DNA of 64,000 nt, from the NCBI GenBank assembly GCA_001782825.1, contig MFPS01000008.1, positions 9,012 to 73,011 of the forward strand, read 5' to 3'. The notes beneath the pieces are model-generated. The model made no database searches. It had not been told where the DNA came from and worked only from the letters and a program-made list of their open reading frames with translations. The translations under genes and the position numbers were made by a program. This document shows positions 7,740 to 14,678 of the stretch, piece by piece. Every line of letters starts with the position of its first letter. Position 1 is the stretch's first letter. The stretch is from Candidatus Magasanikbacteria bacterium RIFCSPHIGHO2_01_FULL_33_34. Its GTDB lineage: Bacteria > Patescibacteriota > Patescibacteriia > Magasanikbacterales > UBA922.

Positions 7740-7840
7740 AAAAATAAATAATGATTTATATAATTAAATCATTATAAGGATATATTGTCAAAAAATTTAA
7801 CTTGATTCTTTCTAGCTATTTTGTTAATATAGGGTTTATT

Positions 7841-8602
7841 ATGCAAGATTTTTTGAAAGAGACAATCAGAGAAGCCGGGGGTATTGCCAAGGAATATTTT
7901 TATCAAGGAGTTGTTCATAGGATGAAAACTTCTTTGGGTGATTTGGTTACAGACGCTGATATTGCAGTCAGTAATTTTTTGATAGAAAAAATACATGAAA
8001 AGTATCCAGATCATCAAATTCATACAGAAGAAGAGGGCGATGATATAAATCCTGGAGCTCAATATGAGTGGGTACTTGATCCGATTGATGGTACGCGTAA
8101 TTTTGCCATGGGAATATCTTTTTGGTGTATTATGGTAGCCGTACTCAAAGATGGCGAATTGTATATGTCAGCTATATATAACCCTTTGGCAGATGAATTG
8201 TTTTTTGCTGAAGCAAATAAAGGGGCATTTATGAATGATAAAAAAATAAAAGTAAATGATGTTGATGTTTTGGATCATGGTAATGGTGTATTGATGCGTG
8301 GTATCAATACTGATCGTGAAGAAGAATATAAAAATATGTTAGCAAAAGTGTCGGTTGGTAGTAATATGTGGATGCTTAATTTTGGCACGATGTTGAGTTT
8401 GTGTCATTTGGCAATGGGTGGTATGGAATATTTTGCAGTTAATGTTGGTTTTGATCATGATTATTTGCCGGGAGTGTTAATTGCCAAAGAGGCTGGAGCA
8501 GTCGTGACTGATAGTCAGGGTGAACCATGGACTCGATATAAGCGTGATATAGTAGTATCAAATTCAAATTTACATTCAAAACTTTTAGAACTATTCAAAT
8601 AA
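7841..8602 (+). CDS. suhB: inositol monophosphatase family protein (SuhB-like)
   Basis: Motifs WVLDPIDGTRNF and metal-binding EEEGD; ATG at 7841 preferred over upstream in-frame ATG at 7802 (AGGG 9 nt upstream). Confidence 0.8.
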   Translation: MQDFLKETIREAGGIAKEYFYQGVVHRMKTSLGDLVTDADIAVSNFLIEKIHEKYPDHQIHTEEEGDDINPGAQYEWVLDPIDGTRNFAMGISFWCIMVAVLKDGELYMSAIYNPLADELFFAEANKGAFMNDKKIKVNDVDVLDHGNGVLMRGINTDREEEYKNMLAKVSVGSNMWMLNFGTMLSLCHLAMGGMEYFAVNVGFDHDYLPGVLIAKEAGAVVTDSQGEPWTRYKRDIVVSNSNLHSKLLELFK

Positions 8603-8603
8603 T

Positions 8604-11600
8604 ATGCAGGAATATAATCCAAATAAAATAGAATCAAAATGGCAAAAAGAATGGGAAAAAAACGGCCTTTATAAAACGCCAGAAGATGTTATTATAGAAA
8701 ATAAAATGTATATATTGCCACAATTGCCATATCCATCAGGATCTGGTTTGCATGTGGGTCATGCAGAAGTATATTCGGCATGTGATATATATGCGCGATA
8801 TCAGAGAATGCAAAAAAAGAAAGTTTTGCAAGTAATAGGCTGGGATAGTTTTGGATTGCCAGCAGAAAATTATGCAATAAAAAATAATGTGCACCCAAAA
8901 ATAAGTACAGACAAAGCCATTGATAATTTTAGGAGTCAAATTAAGTCATTGGGTATTTCTGTAGATTGGGATCGTGAAGTTGGGGCGCATAATCCTGATT
9001 ATTACAAATGGACACAGTGGTTTTTTTTGCTTATGTATAGACGTGGTCTTGCTTATCGTAAAAAACAAAGTGTCAATTGGTGCGATAGTTGTAAGACTGT
9101 GTTAGCAAATGAACAAGTGGTTGAAGGTCATTGTGAGCGTTGTGATACAGAAGTAGTCCAAAGAAAAATGGATCAATGGTTTTTGAAAATTACTGATTAT
9201 GCAGATCGGTTAGCAAAAGATTTGGATAAAGTAGATTGGCCAGCAGAAACAAAACGAAGACAAAGGCAATGGATAGGTCGGAGTGATGGGGCTGAGGTTG
9301 ATTTTAAAATCAAAGATTTTGATTATAAGATTTCAGTATTTACTACTCGTCCAGATACGCTTTTTGGGGCGACATATTTGGTATTGGCTCCAGAAGGTTT
9401 GATCGTGCAAGAATTAAGAGGGCAAGTAGAAAATTGGTTAGAGGTTGAAAAATATATTGATGAAACAAAAAAGAAAACAGAACTTAATCGTCAAACACAA
9501 AAAGAAAAAACTGGGGTAGAATTGAAGGGTATTAAAGCGATTAATCCGGTTAATGGAAAAGAGATGCCTATTTGGATTGCTGATTATGTTTTATCAACTT
9601 ATGGTACAGGGTCTATTATGGCAGTGCCGGCGCATGATGAGAGAGATTGGGAGTTTGCTAAGAAGTTTGGTTTGGAAATAAAAGTTGTCGTAATTCCGGT
9701 GATAGATAGTAGACCAGATGAATTGTTGAATGAAAAAATAAATTTTTATACAAATGAAACGTTACAACACGGCAGTTATTCTAAAGAAGGCTTATCAGTA
9801 AATTCCAATTTTTTAGATGGTTTAAAAAGTGAAGAAGCCAAAGAAAAAATGATAGCTTGGCTTGAAGAATATAATGTTGGCAAAAGAAAAGTCCAATTTA
9901 AACTTCGGGATTGGTCAGTGTCTCGCCAAAGGTTTTGGGGAGCTCCAATTCCAATGGTATTTAATGAAACAAGAAAAAACAAAAAATATGAATATATTTT
10001 TATTCATGGGTATGGTGGGGACAGTGAGTCAAATTATTTTCCAAAATTAAAAAAAGATTTAGAAGCAATTGGCCATACAGTGATTGCTTTTGATTTGCCA
10101 AATACGGAAAAGCCAAATATTTGTGAACAAATGCAGTTTTTGCTTGAAAATATTAGTATAAGTGAAAATACTGTTATTTTGGCACATAGTCTTGGTGGGG
10201 CTGTAGCCATGAAGATGTTAGAACATGAAAACAAAAAAGTTGCTAAAGTGATTTTTTCTGATTGTTTTTTTGAGCCAAAGTTTGCCGATGTTGCACGACC
10301 AGTTGTTGAGAGTAGCTGTGATTGGAATTTTGATTTTGAAAAATTAAAGACATTGTCAGAGGAGTTTGTAGTTGTTTTTGATTCTAATTGTCCGGTAATT
10401 CCTCGTGAACATAGTGAAAAGTTTGCCAAAAATTTGGATGCAAGAATAGTATTTGCGCGGGCTAATGGACCTCATTTTATGAGTATTCACGAACCAATAA
10501 TTTTAGAAGAGTCATTGGTCAATGGTTTAAAACCAGTTAAATTTGATGATTTGCCGGTGAAATTGCCTGATGATGTAGATTTCAAACCTACTGGACAATC
10601 TCCTTTGACATATTCAAAAGATTTTCAAAAAGGTATTGAAGATAAATATGGTTTGGGTTGGGAGAGAGAAGTGGATACACTGGATACGTTTATGTGTTCT
10701 AGTTGGTTTTATTATCGTTATCTTGATCCAAAAAATGATGATGAGTTCGCCTCAAGTATTGCCTTAAAAAAATGGATGCCAGTAGATTTTTATCTGGGTG
10801 GTGAGGAACATGTTAATGGACACTTATTGTATTCAAGGTTTTTCACCAAAGTTTTATTTGATGCTGGATATATTGATTTTGATGAACCATTTATGATGCA
10901 TAGGCATCAAGGTATGATTTTAGGTGAAGATAGCAAAAAAATGAGCAAACGTTGGTCAAATGTTATAAATCCATCTGATGTTGTAGATGAATTTGGAGCA
11001 GATACTTTTAGAGTATATGAGATGTTTATGGGTCCACTCGAACAAACTAAACCATGGAATACTGATGGTGTTCGTGGGGCGCGTAGATTTCTAGATAGAG
11101 TGTGGAATTTATACAAAAAAGTAAATTCTACAGAAAATTTAGAAGTTGAATACGATTCAATTCTTCACAAGACTATAAAAAAAGTTGGTGATGATTTGGC
11201 TACTTTTAGATTCAATACGGCCATTGCAAAGATGATGGAATTGACAAATGAATTTGTAAAAAGTGATAAAATTAGGCATACAGATTTTGAATTATTTTTA
11301 AAGATATTATCTCCATTTGCTCCACATATGACAGAAGAATTGTGGTCTGATATGGGTAATAAAAAATCAATATCATTAGAAGTTTGGCCTCAATATGATG
11401 AGAATAAAGTTATGGATAGCAAAATTATAGTGGTGGCGCAAGTAAATGGTAAAGTACGGGCAAGTTTTGAAGTGGATGTTGATATTTCAGAGAGTGATAT
11501 TAAAAAGATAGTGTTAGAAGATGCTGTTGTCAAAAAATGGTTAGCTGGCAAAGAGCCAAAGAAAGTAATTTATGTTAAGGGAAAGTTAGTATCAGTTGTA

Positions 11601-11606
11601 GTTTAG
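8604..11606 (+). CDS. leuS: leucyl-tRNA synthetase with inserted alpha/beta serine-hydrolase domain
   Basis: HIGH (HVGH), KMSKR, CP1 editing domain (TTRPDT, AVPAHDERDWEFA), WGAPIPMV and LPVKLPDDV motifs; ~190-codon in-frame insertion (9964-10545) with FIHGYGG / AHSLGG / FDSNCPVIP / NGPHF hydrolase motifs; 1000 aa versus ~800-860 typical. Confidence 0.95.
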   Translation: MQEYNPNKIESKWQKEWEKNGLYKTPEDVIIENKMYILPQLPYPSGSGLHVGHAEVYSACDIYARYQRMQKKKVLQVIGWDSFGLPAENYAIKNNVHPKISTDKAIDNFRSQIKSLGISVDWDREVGAHNPDYYKWTQWFFLLMYRRGLAYRKKQSVNWCDSCKTVLANEQVVEGHCERCDTEVVQRKMDQWFLKITDYADRLAKDLDKVDWPAETKRRQRQWIGRSDGAEVDFKIKDFDYKISVFTTRPDTLFGATYLVLAPEGLIVQELRGQVENWLEVEKYIDETKKKTELNRQTQKEKTGVELKGIKAINPVNGKEMPIWIADYVLSTYGTGSIMAVPAHDERDWEFAKKFGLEIKVVVIPVIDSRPDELLNEKINFYTNETLQHGSYSKEGLSVNSNFLDGLKSEEAKEKMIAWLEEYNVGKRKVQFKLRDWSVSRQRFWGAPIPMVFNETRKNKKYEYIFIHGYGGDSESNYFPKLKKDLEAIGHTVIAFDLPNTEKPNICEQMQFLLENISISENTVILAHSLGGAVAMKMLEHENKKVAKVIFSDCFFEPKFADVARPVVESSCDWNFDFEKLKTLSEEFVVVFDSNCPVIPREHSEKFAKNLDARIVFARANGPHFMSIHEPIILEESLVNGLKPVKFDDLPVKLPDDVDFKPTGQSPLTYSKDFQKGIEDKYGLGWEREVDTLDTFMCSSWFYYRYLDPKNDDEFASSIALKKWMPVDFYLGGEEHVNGHLLYSRFFTKVLFDAGYIDFDEPFMMHRHQGMILGEDSKKMSKRWSNVINPSDVVDEFGADTFRVYEMFMGPLEQTKPWNTDGVRGARRFLDRVWNLYKKVNSTENLEVEYDSILHKTIKKVGDDLATFRFNTAIAKMMELTNEFVKSDKIRHTDFELFLKILSPFAPHMTEELWSDMGNKKSISLEVWPQYDENKVMDSKIIVVAQVNGKVRASFEVDVDISESDIKKIVLEDAVVKKWLAGKEPKKVIYVKGKLVSVVV

Positions 11607-11608
11607 TT

Positions 11609-13060
11609 ATGAATTACAATATAATAAATTCCAAAAGCAAAACGTTTATAGCGTTTTGTTTTTCTTTTCTTATTGGTGTTGTAATAGCCTCAATATTTAA
11701 ATTTAATTTTGATTATGTAGTCTGGGGTTTTGTGTTTGTAATTTTGATTGGATTATTAGTTGCATTTAGAAAAAGTAAAAGTAAAGTATTTATTTTTGTA
11801 AATGTACTATTGATTATACTAGGAATTTGTAGATATAATTTTGCCTTGCCAAATGATAATGAAAAATATATTAGCCATTATAATGGCAATAAGTTTAAAT
11901 TTGTTGGTTATATTAGCACTGAGCCAGATGTACGAATTGTTGATATTCGTTATGTAGTTCAAAGTGATGATTTAAAAGGCAAAGTCTATTTTAAAAGTAC
12001 TTTATATCCAAGATATGATTATGGAGATAGAGTTGAGATTGAATGTGATTTGGTAACACCAGAGGCATTTGATGATTTTAGGTATGATATGTATTTGGCA
12101 AATATGGGTGTATTTTCATTGTGTGTGAATCCTTATGTATCCAGGTTAGATGGATATGGTGGTAGTATATTTTTTCGTGAAATAATGAAGTATAAAAATA
12201 TTTTTGCTGGGCAAATAAATAAGTTATGGCATGAGCCATATGCTAGTTTTATGGCTGGACTTTTGTATGGTTATCGTGGTGGTTTGGGAGATTTGCAGGA
12301 ACATTTTAATAGGACTGGTATTACTCATATCGTGGCAATTTCTGGATATAATATTTCAATTATTTCAATAATGTTGATTACAATATTTGTTCGATTATGG
12401 ATTCCAAGAAAAAAAGCATTTTGGATTATTATTTTTTGTATTTTTTTGTTTGTAATATTTGCTGGGGCAAGCGGGTCTGTTGTCCGAGCTGGGATTATGG
12501 GGTCAATAGTTCTTTTGTCCAAGTATTTGGGTAGGAAAAATAGAATGGCGAATACTATTATTTTTACAGCCGTATTGATGACAATTTATAATCCATTTGT
12601 ATTGGTATGGGATATTGGATTTCAATTGTCATTTTTGGCTACAATTGGGTTGGTTTATTTGTTGCCAATTTTAGAAGATAAATTTAAAAAATTTCCTAAT
12701 TTGTTTTCAATAAAGACATTATTTTTATCTACTATTTCGGCTATTATACTGACATTTCCATTGACATTGTATCAGTTTGGTAGATTTTCAATCGTAGCTC
12801 CAGTCGTTAATATATTGGTTTTGTGGTTGATTCCATTTATAATGTTATTTGGTTTTATTAGTGTTTTATTGAGTTTTCTTTTTTATCCAATTGGGCAAAT
12901 GTTCGCTTGGCTTACTTTTTTAGGTTTGAAATATATAACATTTATTACAGTTTGGTTTTCTACTTTTGAATATTCTTCTGTTGAATTTCAAGTACCATTA
13001 TTTTTTATCTTTGTTATTTATTTTGTAATCTTTTTTATTATTTATAAATTAAAAAAATGA
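11609..13060 (+). CDS. comEC: ComEC/Rec2 DNA-internalisation protein, N-terminal membrane (competence) domain only
   Basis: 483-aa polytopic protein with ComEC competence-domain architecture (N-terminal DUF4131-like region, TGITHIVAISGYNISII block); the MBL domain is encoded separately downstream. Confidence 0.75.
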   Translation: MNYNIINSKSKTFIAFCFSFLIGVVIASIFKFNFDYVVWGFVFVILIGLLVAFRKSKSKVFIFVNVLLIILGICRYNFALPNDNEKYISHYNGNKFKFVGYISTEPDVRIVDIRYVVQSDDLKGKVYFKSTLYPRYDYGDRVEIECDLVTPEAFDDFRYDMYLANMGVFSLCVNPYVSRLDGYGGSIFFREIMKYKNIFAGQINKLWHEPYASFMAGLLYGYRGGLGDLQEHFNRTGITHIVAISGYNISIISIMLITIFVRLWIPRKKAFWIIIFCIFLFVIFAGASGSVVRAGIMGSIVLLSKYLGRKNRMANTIIFTAVLMTIYNPFVLVWDIGFQLSFLATIGLVYLLPILEDKFKKFPNLFSIKTLFLSTISAIILTFPLTLYQFGRFSIVAPVVNILVLWLIPFIMLFGFISVLLSFLFYPIGQMFAWLTFLGLKYITFITVWFSTFEYSSVEFQVPLFFIFVIYFVIFFIIYKLKK

Positions 13061-13769: not shown

Positions 13770-14678
13770 ATGAAAAAAACATTTTTTATAGTTTTGGCAT
13801 TTTTAGTAGTAGTTATTGTAATGTTGATTTATATAAAAATTGATAAAAAAACTATTATTAAGAGTGTGGAAAATACTAGTATTTCTCCACAGGATAAAAA
13901 TGAATTTAAAAGTTATTTGAAAGTAAGCTTTTTGGATGTTGGGCAGGGTGATGCGAGTATGATTGAGTGGCCTAGTGGCAAGCAAATGCTGGTGGATTGT
14001 GGCAGGGATGCGAGTGTTTTGTCTGGTCTGGGAGATTTTATGCCTTTTTATGATAAATATATAGATTATTTATTGATCACTCATCCAGATTATGATCATT
14101 TTGGTGGATGTATTGATGTTTTGAAGAGATTTGATATCGGAGAGATTGTATATAATGGTTTAGTTGCGGATAATAAGGCTTGGGATTATTTTTGGGATTT
14201 GGCGATTTCTGAAGGTGCAACTATAACTCGCATTAGTAAATTGGATACATGGAAGATTGAAAATTCAGAGTTGAAATTTTTGTACCCAGATTCAGATATT
14301 TCTATTAAGGGTATAAATAATAATGATAGTTCAATTGTGTTTCTTTTATCATTTGGAGAAATGGATATTTTGTTTACAGGGGATGCAGAAGAAGGGTTGG
14401 AAGAATATTTGGTAACTACATATGATAATATTCTTGATTCAGAAATATTAAAAGTTGGACATCATGGTAGCGGGACATCATCAATTACAAAGTTTATTGA
14501 TGCTGTTAAACCAAAATATTCTGTGATTTCTGTTGGTGAAGATAATAATTATGGACATCCTTCATTGAGAGTATTAAAACGATTAGAAAGGGTTCAAAGT
14601 GAAGTTTTTAGGACTGATTTATTGGGTAATATTAGCTTTAATATTTATGAAAATCGTATTGAAAGAGTGTTTGAATGA
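13770..14678 (+). CDS. ComEC-type metallo-beta-lactamase domain protein (C-terminal half of ComEC)
   Basis: N-terminal TM anchor; SFLDVGQGDASMIEWPSGKQMLVDCG, HPDYDHFGG, TGDAE, KVGHHGS motifs typical of the ComEC MBL nuclease domain. Confidence 0.8.
   Translation: MKKTFFIVLAFLVVVIVMLIYIKIDKKTIIKSVENTSISPQDKNEFKSYLKVSFLDVGQGDASMIEWPSGKQMLVDCGRDASVLSGLGDFMPFYDKYIDYLLITHPDYDHFGGCIDVLKRFDIGEIVYNGLVADNKAWDYFWDLAISEGATITRISKLDTWKIENSELKFLYPDSDISIKGINNNDSSIVFLLSFGEMDILFTGDAEEGLEEYLVTTYDNILDSEILKVGHHGSGTSSITKFIDAVKPKYSVISVGEDNNYGHPSLRVLKRLERVQSEVFRTDLLGNISFNIYENRIERVFE

Follow-up and report, generated by a model that had tools for sequence, protein, structure and literature searches.

A predicted YdeN/RBBP9-type serine hydrolase nested in the catalytic core of leucyl-tRNA synthetase in Candidatus Magasanikbacteria

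The stretch of DNA analyzed here (hereafter, the window) comprises 64,000 nucleotides of Candidatus Magasanikbacteria bacterium RIFCSPHIGHO2_01_FULL_33_34 (GenBank assembly GCA_001782825.1, contig MFPS01000008.1, positions 9,012 to 73,011). It contains a leuS gene encoding a bacterial-type leucyl-tRNA synthetase (LeuRS), and inside the catalytic core of this synthetase lies a second, smaller domain that, judged by its sequence and predicted structure, is a lid-less alpha/beta hydrolase of the YdeN/RBBP9 family. A sequence-only reading of the window, made without database searches, had proposed a LeuRS carrying an in-frame serine hydrolase of this type, and our analyses bear this out. In the list of open reading frames (ORFs) of the window, the 1000 codons of leuS run without interruption. 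Searching the whole protein against NCBIfam identified leuS_bact (TIGR00396) at 933.8 bits, against a cut-off of 548.4, in a match split in two that ends at residue 457 and picks up again past the insert. Pfam recovered the class I catalytic, CP1 editing (residues 221-421), and anticodon-binding domains of LeuRS and, between them at residues 465-622, Abhydrolase_1 and Ser_hydrolase (PF06821).

The identity of the insert was consistent across profile, sequence, and fold comparisons. Searched on its own, the insert matched PF00561 with 47.4 bits (E 2.5e-12) and PF06821 with 39.3 bits (34.8 bits within the whole protein; cut-off 22), which are the kinds of match that the sequence-only reading had predicted. 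A phmmer search of the PDB returned YdeN of Bacillus subtilis (1uxo, E 4e-13) and human RBBP9 (E 5e-5). The AlphaFold2 (AF2) model of the insert alone had a predicted local distance difference test score (pLDDT) of 96.2, and the domain kept a value of ∼95 inside the full-length model. Foldseek placed this model on 1uxo with E 1.4e-13, template modeling (TM) scores of 0.79/0.82, and a root mean square deviation (rmsd) of 2.4 Å, and on RBBP9 with TM about 0.8. With 1uxo, 2qs9, and 7oex, TM ranged from 0.79 to 0.84, and the next-best matches, hydrolases that bear a lid, reached a TM normalized to the target (TMt) of only about 0.55. All Pfam and NCBIfam matches of the insert, and all of its 50 best-listed PDB fold matches, were alpha/beta hydrolases, so the alternative that no hydrolase fold is present does not agree with what we found. 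The insert thus shares with YdeN (1UXO), RBBP9 (2QS9 and 7OEX), and PF06821 the lid-less fold of ∼185 residues (TM 0.79-0.84, rmsd 2.3-3.2 Å), the HG oxyanion motif, the G/A-H-S-x-G nucleophile elbow, and the C-terminal His. It differs from them in sequence (18-26% identity), in being nested rather than free-standing, and in its catalytic acid: YdeN and RBBP9 have the canonical Asp after strand b7, whereas the insert has a Cys there (C596) and two candidate acids elsewhere (D553 and D593).

We set the boundaries of the insert by alignment with 62 relatives, insert-free LeuRS included. Insert-free LeuRS read WGAPIPMLYDEK-GE followed by LHPVPEEDLPV, or PIPMLYDEK-GE followed by LHPV, across the site; the window LeuRS reads WGAPIPMVFNETRK[NKKYEY...EESLVNG]LKPVKFDDLPV, that is, PIPMVFNETRK[183 aa]LKPV. 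The alignment therefore shows a clean indel in which the guest forms the tip of a beta-hairpin, a surface element in the second half of the Rossmann fold. The sequence-only reading had placed about 190 extra codons at 9964-10545. A large insert does lie there, and alignment with insert-free relatives gives 183 codons; the interval itself was one nucleotide out of frame (its in-frame equivalent is 9963-10544) and wider than the exact one, 9978-10526.

What does the insert replace? Its flanks align with residues 380-440 and 443-537 of Thermus thermophilus LeuRS, and it therefore stands in for the CxxC motif of that enzyme (HCEACG, 439-442), a position that we read, on the strength of this alignment, as knuckle 1 of the ZN-2 module. 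ZN-2 contributes to activity in Zn-binding LeuRS (PMC4005665). The Cys pairs of both T. thermophilus knuckles (C439/C442 and C484/C487) are unmatched in the window, which has FNETRK[insert] for HCEACG and EDKYGLG for TCPKCG; the Cys residues of the segment aligned with TCPKCG are missing in the window lineage too. Two related LeuRS (P0123 and P0137) retain a CxxC directly 5' of the hydrolase. The idea that the insert is itself a known ZN-2 or CP2 element, which had been raised against the sequence-only reading from the start, was rejected because the knuckle positions hold no Cys and the insert has the fold of a hydrolase. Inspection of the site-A DNA boundaries (site A being the insertion site of the window) in loci L025 and L026 revealed no direct repeats or microhomology, in a pair that at 76-84% identity is too diverged for such a comparison.

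The synthetase around the insert appears to be intact. The window LeuRS shares with bacterial LeuRS that have ZN-2 (T. thermophilus, 1H3N/2BYT; Escherichia coli, 4AQ7/4ARC) the order Rossmann fold, ZN-1, CP1, anticodon-binding domain, and C-terminal domain, as well as the HIGH, KMSKS, and CP1 motifs; it differs from T. thermophilus LeuRS in having a 183-residue enzyme where the latter has its CxxC, and in lacking the Cys of TCPKCG. The residues by which we judged CP1 (E. coli T247/T248/T252 and D345) are all represented, in TTRPDT and AHDERD. The AF2 model of the full-length protein (pLDDT 87.9; predicted TM score 0.83) matched E. coli LeuRS-tRNA complexes in Foldseek with a target-normalized TM of 0.85 and also superposed on T. 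thermophilus LeuRS (TM up to 0.85). HVGH at residue 50, KMSKR at 779, TTRPDT at 247, and AHDERD at 343 in one continuous frame agree with what had been read from the letters alone. With a TIGR00396 score of 934 bits and both sets of catalytic signatures kept, sequence and model support the view that the gene is a functional-looking LeuRS chimera rather than a pseudogene. A 131-codon antisense ORF lies wholly within the hydrolase-coding segment and is probably spurious.

Is the nested hydrolase likely to be active? We compared its catalytic columns across 68 LeuRS domains at site A, 33 at site B (a second insertion site, within CP1), and 67 free homologues. The predicted nucleophile, Ser529, directly follows a strand (residues 523-528) in the AF2 model and is Ser in 68/68 site-A domains, 33/33 site-B domains, and 66/67 free homologues; the catalytic His is invariant in all three groups. 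The canonical acid column behaves differently. Free homologues have Asp there in 66 of 67 cases, site-B domains have Asp or Glu in 29 of 33, and at site A the column is mostly Tyr, Phe, or His. This loss is accompanied by gains elsewhere: D553 is present in 58 of the 68 site-A domains, 57 of these 58 also have Asp or Glu at 593, and 54 of them lack an acid at 596, while the remaining 10/68 combine Ala or Gly at 553 with Asp596. That Asp553 and D593 track the loss of Asp596 argues that the active site is being kept active. From this covariation and the predicted secondary structure, we infer that the catalytic acid has moved from its place after b7 to D553, D593, or both. Relocation of a catalytic acid, in which the acid is lost after b7 and gained at the end of b6, has precedents. 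Pancreatic lipase and the haloalkane dehalogenases of the LinB type have lost the b7 acid and use one at the end of b6, which matches the covariation of D553 with a non-acidic residue 596; the difference is that here the relocation is read from covariation and predicted strands. The complete triad in canonical order that had been claimed for the insert therefore stands for Ser529, His624, and the HG region; the canonical acid is lost, and the Asp that had been chosen, D593, is plausible but non-canonical.

The absence of the canonical Asp in the window could also be taken to mean that the domain is a catalytically dead structural or regulatory spacer. Together with the possibility that the arrangement is an artifact (a chimeric contig, a frameshifted pseudogene, or an intein-like or homing element, since inteins too insert in essential genes), we consider this very improbable, and it is already largely refuted. 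Ser, His, and HG are invariant across domains that are only 30-50% identical, the Asp covariation compensates for the loss at 596, and the insert is modeled with pLDDT of 95-96. Insert and host sequence agree in GC content (0.332 in the insert and 0.340 elsewhere in the gene; 0.230 and 0.235 at third codon positions). A separate ENA record lists a 100% identical protein, encoded on a contig of 24.9 kb, and the architecture is shared by orthologues that are 75-82% identical; in all, it was seen in no fewer than 60 protein clusters and 13 GTDB species. A chimeric contig or frameshift was therefore rejected on the unbroken frame, the matching composition, and the recurrence in relatives. We found no Pfam match to a Hint or endonuclease domain in the insert, and the junctions (RK/NKKY and VNG/LKP) are not intein-like. 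An intein or homing element was rejected because all 183 residues are used by the hydrolase fold (YdeN has 186; TM 0.8), which leaves no spare room. Inteins and the palindromic elements of Rickettsia are likewise in-frame inserts in essential, mostly nucleoside triphosphate-binding genes and are patchy among relatives. Unlike them, the insert has no Hint or endonuclease domain and is a complete enzyme with purifying selection on its active site.

We then asked where else this architecture occurs. Scanning genomes of GTDB species with the site-A alignment as query returned 13 loci, in all of which the hydrolase lies inside a continuous LeuRS ORF. By name, these loci belong mostly to Candidatus Magasanikbacteria or Magasanikiibacteriota, with one from Falkowbacteria. 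The gene order of the window (GDH/Inositol_P, leuS, ComEC, metallo-beta-lactamase) is common to most of the 13. Insert-free orthologues sit at the same syntenic leuS locus, which suggests that the gene in the window is the resident leuS of its genome (Table 1). The sequence-only reading knew of no aminoacyl-tRNA synthetase (aaRS) with this architecture, and our full-text literature search found no paper on a LeuRS or other aaRS with a nested hydrolase. The databases, on the other hand, hold dozens of such proteins, some of them under the automatic JGI name [quoted passage not shown] and some of them named by NCBI merely "alpha/beta fold hydrolase." As far as we found, then, the architecture is widespread in metagenomes of the Candidate Phyla Radiation (CPR) and yet undescribed.

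Table 1. Features of the leuS locus and other features of the window mentioned in the text (positions are those of the window)
Feature	Coordinates	Strand	Basis or remark
Inositol-monophosphatase-family gene, directly upstream of leuS	7802..8602	+	Conserved neighborhood
leuS ORF, 1000 aa, bacterial-type LeuRS with nested hydrolase	8604..11606	+	ORF; TIGR00396, 934 bits; AF2, TM 0.85
HIGH signature HVGH, aa 50-53	8751..8762	+	Kept in 62/62 site-A relatives
CP1 editing domain, aa 221-421	9264..9866	+	PF13603, 204 bits
CP1 T-rich motif TTRPDT, aa 247	9342-9359	+	Motif inspection
CP1 AHDERD (Asp345 equivalent), aa 343	9630-9647	+	Motif inspection
Conserved RDWSVSRQRFWGAPIPMV segment, just 5' of the insertion hairpin	9906..9959	+	Alignment
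Nested YdeN/RBBP9-type alpha/beta serine hydrolase (predicted), aa 459-641, 183 aa	9978..10526	+	Pfam, phmmer, alignment, AF2, Foldseek
His468-Gly469, oxyanion-hole HG	10005..10010	+	His 68/68, Gly 60/68 in site A; kept in site B and free homologues
Antisense ORF, 131 aa	10034-10429	-	Probably spurious
Nucleophile elbow AHSLGG	10182..10199	+	Ser529 at 10188-10190
Asp553, candidate relocated catalytic acid, C-terminal end of b6	10260..10262	+	Asp in 58/68 site A; follows strand 548-552
Asp593, end of strand b7 (588-593)	10380..10382	+	Asp or Glu in 59/68 site A; 3 residues before column 596
Cys596, canonical acid column	10389-10391	+	Asp in free homologues
His624, catalytic His (GPHF)	10473..10475	+	100% in all three groups
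LKPVKFDDLPVKLPDDV, where the LeuRS chain resumes (descending hairpin arm)	10527..10577	+	Alignment
KMSKS signature KMSKR, aa 779-783	10938..10952	+	Motif inspection, relatives compared
ComEC gene (DUF4131 and Competence), directly downstream of leuS	11609..13060	+	Conserved synteny marker
ORF, 177 aa	13121-13654	+	No Pfam match
Metallo-beta-lactamase gene	13770-14678	+	Arrangement conserved in relatives
SecD homologue, 681 aa	33005-35050	+	PPIC-type domains, about aa 249-364

Downstream of leuS, ComEC is seemingly split into a DUF4131 plus Competence gene and a metallo-beta-lactamase gene, an arrangement that is conserved in relatives. Between the two lies an ORF of 177 codons with no Pfam match, at whose position loci L020 and L022 have an S-adenosylmethionine (SAM) methyltransferase of ∼200 residues. 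Rfam detected no family at gathering score over positions 1-64000 of the window, and thus no tRNA, rRNA, or riboswitch. We also looked near leuS for possible donors of nested domains. No free hydrolase was found within 7 kb of leuS at three insert-free Magasanikbacteria loci; one free hydrolase lies 2 nucleotides downstream of a plain leuS (L001), and three of the four free hydrolases inspected are away from leuS. The SAM methyltransferases near leuS (L001, L020, and L022) are 23-28% identical, over the SAM-motif region, to those nested in LeuRS P0084 and P0119. The idea that leuS acquires its nested domains by swallowing adjacent genes was not supported.

The same hydrolase is found in many other protein contexts. 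A word-indexed search with the insert alone returned no match, and we turned instead to phmmer, run exhaustively over 1.84 billion cluster representatives; it returned 1089 matches, the best 150 of which we sorted by context with BLAST searches against portions of the window LeuRS and with Pfam. Among these best 150 representatives, 78 were free proteins of about 180 residues. The other 72 had a multi-domain context, and for 53 of these the host was LeuRS: 37 representatives had the hydrolase at site B, past the first ∼22 residues of CP1; 11 at site A; 1, a Peregrinibacteria protein, at site D, between the catalytic and anticodon-binding domains; and 4 were LeuRS fragments ending past the hydrolase. 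Other partners, with one representative each, accounted for 14, and the remaining 5 were long proteins whose partner had no Pfam or LeuRS match. In-frame nested domains 30-40% identical to the window insert were found in valyl-tRNA synthetase (ValRS, P0170), alanyl-tRNA synthetase (AlaRS, P0199), the Met-tRNA formyltransferase Fmt (P0232), TsaD (P0144), EngA/Der (P0164), SecA (P0131), UvrA (P0268), and TatD (P0264). We also observed fusions to adenylate kinase (Adk), Inositol_P, NUDIX, Peptidase_S51, and a second alpha/beta hydrolase, and one tandem protein. A profile search with 36 diverse hydrolase domains returned free-standing proteins only, and the free hydrolases carry Parcubacteria or Paceibacterota names. 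These data show that the hydrolase stems from a CPR-wide pool of free 180-residue enzymes that have been nested or fused repeatedly, and that its affinity for LeuRS as a host is strong and not exclusive.

Other enzymes are nested in related LeuRS as well. At a fourth site, at about residue 145-170 of CP1, we found NUDIX (P0055, P0068, and P0096), SAM methyltransferase (P0064, P0084, and P0119), and HAD (P0020) domains. Some site-B hydrolases have an adjoining partner, GNAT in P0196 and NUDIX in P0173, and NUDIX and the hydrolase also occur together as free two-domain proteins (P0313 and P0233). A precedent is the isoleucyl-tRNA synthetase with an N-acetyltransferase (NCBIfam NF040702, "ileS_w_GNAT"), a class Ia aaRS with an unrelated small-molecule enzyme domain. 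LeuRS P0196, with its GNAT and hydrolase, resembles it; the window LeuRS differs in the type of domain that it carries.

The window holds a further case of nesting, in its SecD homologue. PPIC-type peptidyl-prolyl isomerase (rotamase) domains fall there between the N-terminal P1 segment (residues 92-152) and the P1 head (residues 396-490), which makes this the second nested whole-enzyme domain in a housekeeping protein of the same genome.

How stable is the association of the hydrolase with LeuRS? We built a neighbor-joining tree from 554 core LeuRS columns of 119 sequences, all about 70% identical, 61 of which have the hydrolase. Its presence required 29 changes on this tree under Fitch parsimony, and pairwise identities of core and hydrolase were only weakly correlated (r = 0.22). 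Close pairs differ in the same way. P0052 and P0090 have cores that are 88% identical, and P0089/P0118 and P0094/P0100 have cores that are 91% identical; in all three pairs, the difference consists of clean gaps where the inserts would sit. The proteins P0065 and P0096 match at 100% identity along residues 1-225 and most of the C-terminal third, and their middles are unrelated: one has an alternative CP1 and the hydrolase, the other a canonical CP1 and NUDIX. The loci of this pair come from different studies, and their DNA is 97.3% identical over 5.2 kb, a stretch that takes in the region upstream of leuS and the first ∼680 nucleotides of the gene and ends where CP1 begins; it is then unrelated for ∼1.2 kb, and 93% identical thereafter (the unrelated central cassettes lie at L023:5221-6460 and L024:6681-7794). 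Because close alleles (cores about 88-97% identical) occur with and without the domain, these alignments indicate that the hydrolase is dispensable to LeuRS as such, a cassette-like accessory. To judge from the same sequences, leuS behaves in these genomes like a mosaic, its central modules being swapped through recombination.

The CP1 domain is itself one of these modules. TTRPDT and/or HD motifs were missing in 13 of 67 site-A LeuRS, while among insert-free LeuRS 2 of 58 differed by one conservative substitution in the T-rich motif, with no degenerate case. One potential explanation would be that decay of CP1 is compensated by the hydrolase. We rejected this explanation because the main variant is a conserved alternative type (YDSVPQT...SAHDERDF) rather than a sign of relaxed selection. 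In this type, also seen at L001:3578-5998, the T-rich motif is replaced and Asp345 is kept; copies of it from hosts with only about 40% core identity are 60-67% identical to one another, it occurs in an insert-free LeuRS as well, and it has been exchanged between LeuRS lineages.

These results bear on a function that had been suggested for the insert from the letters alone, an additional proofreading activity of LeuRS. Under this explanation, the hydrolase would be a dedicated extra proofreading or clearance module acting in cis, beside CP1 or in its place, that deacylates mischarged tRNALeu or hydrolyzes aminoacyl-adenylates or aminoacyl-nucleotide mimics. Several observations speak for it: capture by LeuRS at no fewer than three sites (A, B inside CP1, and D), the predominance of LeuRS among the multi-domain hosts, and the leuS-adjacent free copy at L001. 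Moreover, ValRS, AlaRS, and Fmt all bind aminoacyl-tRNA (TsaD and EngA are hosts too), and NUDIX and GNAT are recurrent LeuRS partners. NUDIX and GNAT are types of enzyme used for the detoxification of aminoacyl-nucleotides. Members of the subfamily, however, also sit inside SecA, UvrA, and TatD or are joined to Adk, Inositol_P, and Peptidase_S51; most of the free copies inspected are away from leuS; LeuRS alleles with 88-97% identical cores do without the domain; the window CP1 motifs are intact; and the apparent CP1 decay in hydrolase-bearing LeuRS is the conserved alternative CP1. The editing domains of aaRS (CP1, INS/YbaK of ProRS, N2 of ThrRS, AlaRS/AlaX, and DTD) likewise provide an extra hydrolytic site in a synthetase chain and have free homologues. 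Unlike these, the insert is a Ser-His-Asp alpha/beta hydrolase, unrelated in fold and mechanism, that stands alongside an intact CP1, is dispensable among close alleles, and also resides in proteins that have nothing to do with tRNA. Given the non-tRNA hosts, the dispensability, and the intact CP1, the domain is unlikely to serve proofreading in an obligatory way, and a LeuRS-specific proofreading role was not borne out. The family's chemistry would suit an aminoacyl ester, as far as the RBBP9 sources cited below describe it. With this chemistry, and with LeuRS, ValRS, AlaRS, and Fmt all among the proteins that have repeatedly captured the domain, the deacylase idea survives as a possible but doubtful explanation.

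The mosaic structure of leuS allows another explanation, in which the variable cassettes are maintained by conflict or antibiotic selection, and a shuffled central leuS with tethered enzymes would shield LeuRS and tRNALeu from toxins or aminoacyl-nucleotide inhibitors. Candidates for such protection are at hand (the serine hydrolase, NUDIX, GNAT, SAM methyltransferase, and HAD, with several alternative domains at the same sites). Near-identical flanks enclose unrelated central cassettes, inserts at sites A and C are extremely patchy, the alternative CP1 has been swapped between lineages, and comEC adjoins leuS. Neutral indel polymorphism with homologous recombination in a conserved gene fits these data equally well; no inhibitor or toxin is known for these organisms, and neither the window nor three insert-free loci have a defense-island context around leuS. 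We therefore regard this explanation as improbable. A related and still unlikely conjecture is that the central third of Magasanikbacteria leuS is a recombination-shuffled cassette locus, with conserved flanks as handles for swapping CP1 types and nested enzymes that would serve as tethered protection or clearance modules. At the synthetase, aminoacyl esters, aminoacyl-nucleotide mimics, or damaged tRNA ends might be the targets that such modules hydrolyze or modify. If this were true, the locus would represent a new class of quality-control or immunity function embedded in an aaRS, and the serine hydrolase would be a CP1-independent aminoacyl hydrolase.

The explanation that we prefer, with a probability of roughly 0.55, is that the protein is two enzymes in one chain: the resident LeuRS of the Magasanikbacteria type and a competent YdeN/RBBP9 hydrolase that is autonomous and tethered. 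The hydrolase would project as a loop from the tip of a beta-hairpin on the surface, where the ZN-2 knuckle used to be, and would act on its own, as a tethered and co-expressed house-cleaning enzyme rather than in an obligatory step of leucylation. Human RBBP9, the relative of the insert that is best characterized, works as an aminopeptidase and needs a free alpha-amine in its substrate (PMC8866121), and it activates valacyclovir, a valyl ester, according to Shenoy et al. 2020 as cited in PMC7730578. This chemistry, in the form in which these sources give it, makes an alpha-aminoacyl ester or amide with a free alpha-amine the most reasonable, and by analogy most likely, substrate class. The tether to LeuRS may bias the hydrolase toward aminoacyl-tRNA or aminoacyl-nucleotide by-products, and the data can also be explained without such a bias. 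Some points weigh against this preferred explanation. The substrate is taken from a homologue that is just 18-26% identical. The core tree may be poorly resolved, which would weaken the apparent patchiness, with the close pairs remaining robust, and some of the mosaic alleles could be strain-mixed metagenome assemblies. Finally, the strong preference for LeuRS suggests more than passive hitch-hiking, given that LeuRS offers at least three sites, that ValRS, AlaRS, and Fmt serve as further hosts, and that one free copy adjoins leuS.

The aaRS are among the most conserved and best-studied enzymes, and their accessory hydrolytic domains (CP1, INS, N2, and AlaX) frame our understanding of translational fidelity. 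The insert-bearing LeuRS is an aaRS with an accessory catalytic domain, which is a known kind of protein; its cassette behavior at the population level is unusual, and a serine-hydrolase fold nested in the LeuRS catalytic core is apparently undescribed in the literature that we searched. The RBBP9 chemistry (alpha-aminoacyl amides and, as cited above, a valyl ester) makes the insert a candidate, open to direct testing, for a deacylase or an aminoacyl-nucleotide hydrolase of a new kind. The findings are also relevant to automated annotation, in which some of these LeuRS appear under the name of their guest, and the permissive insertion sites that they identify in LeuRS may be of use in protein engineering. 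Even if the hydrolase works independently of its host, essential CPR proteins act here as scaffolds for whole guest enzymes that are gained, lost, and swapped between near-identical alleles, a pattern that bears on how expression is organized in ultra-small genomes and on recombination within essential genes.

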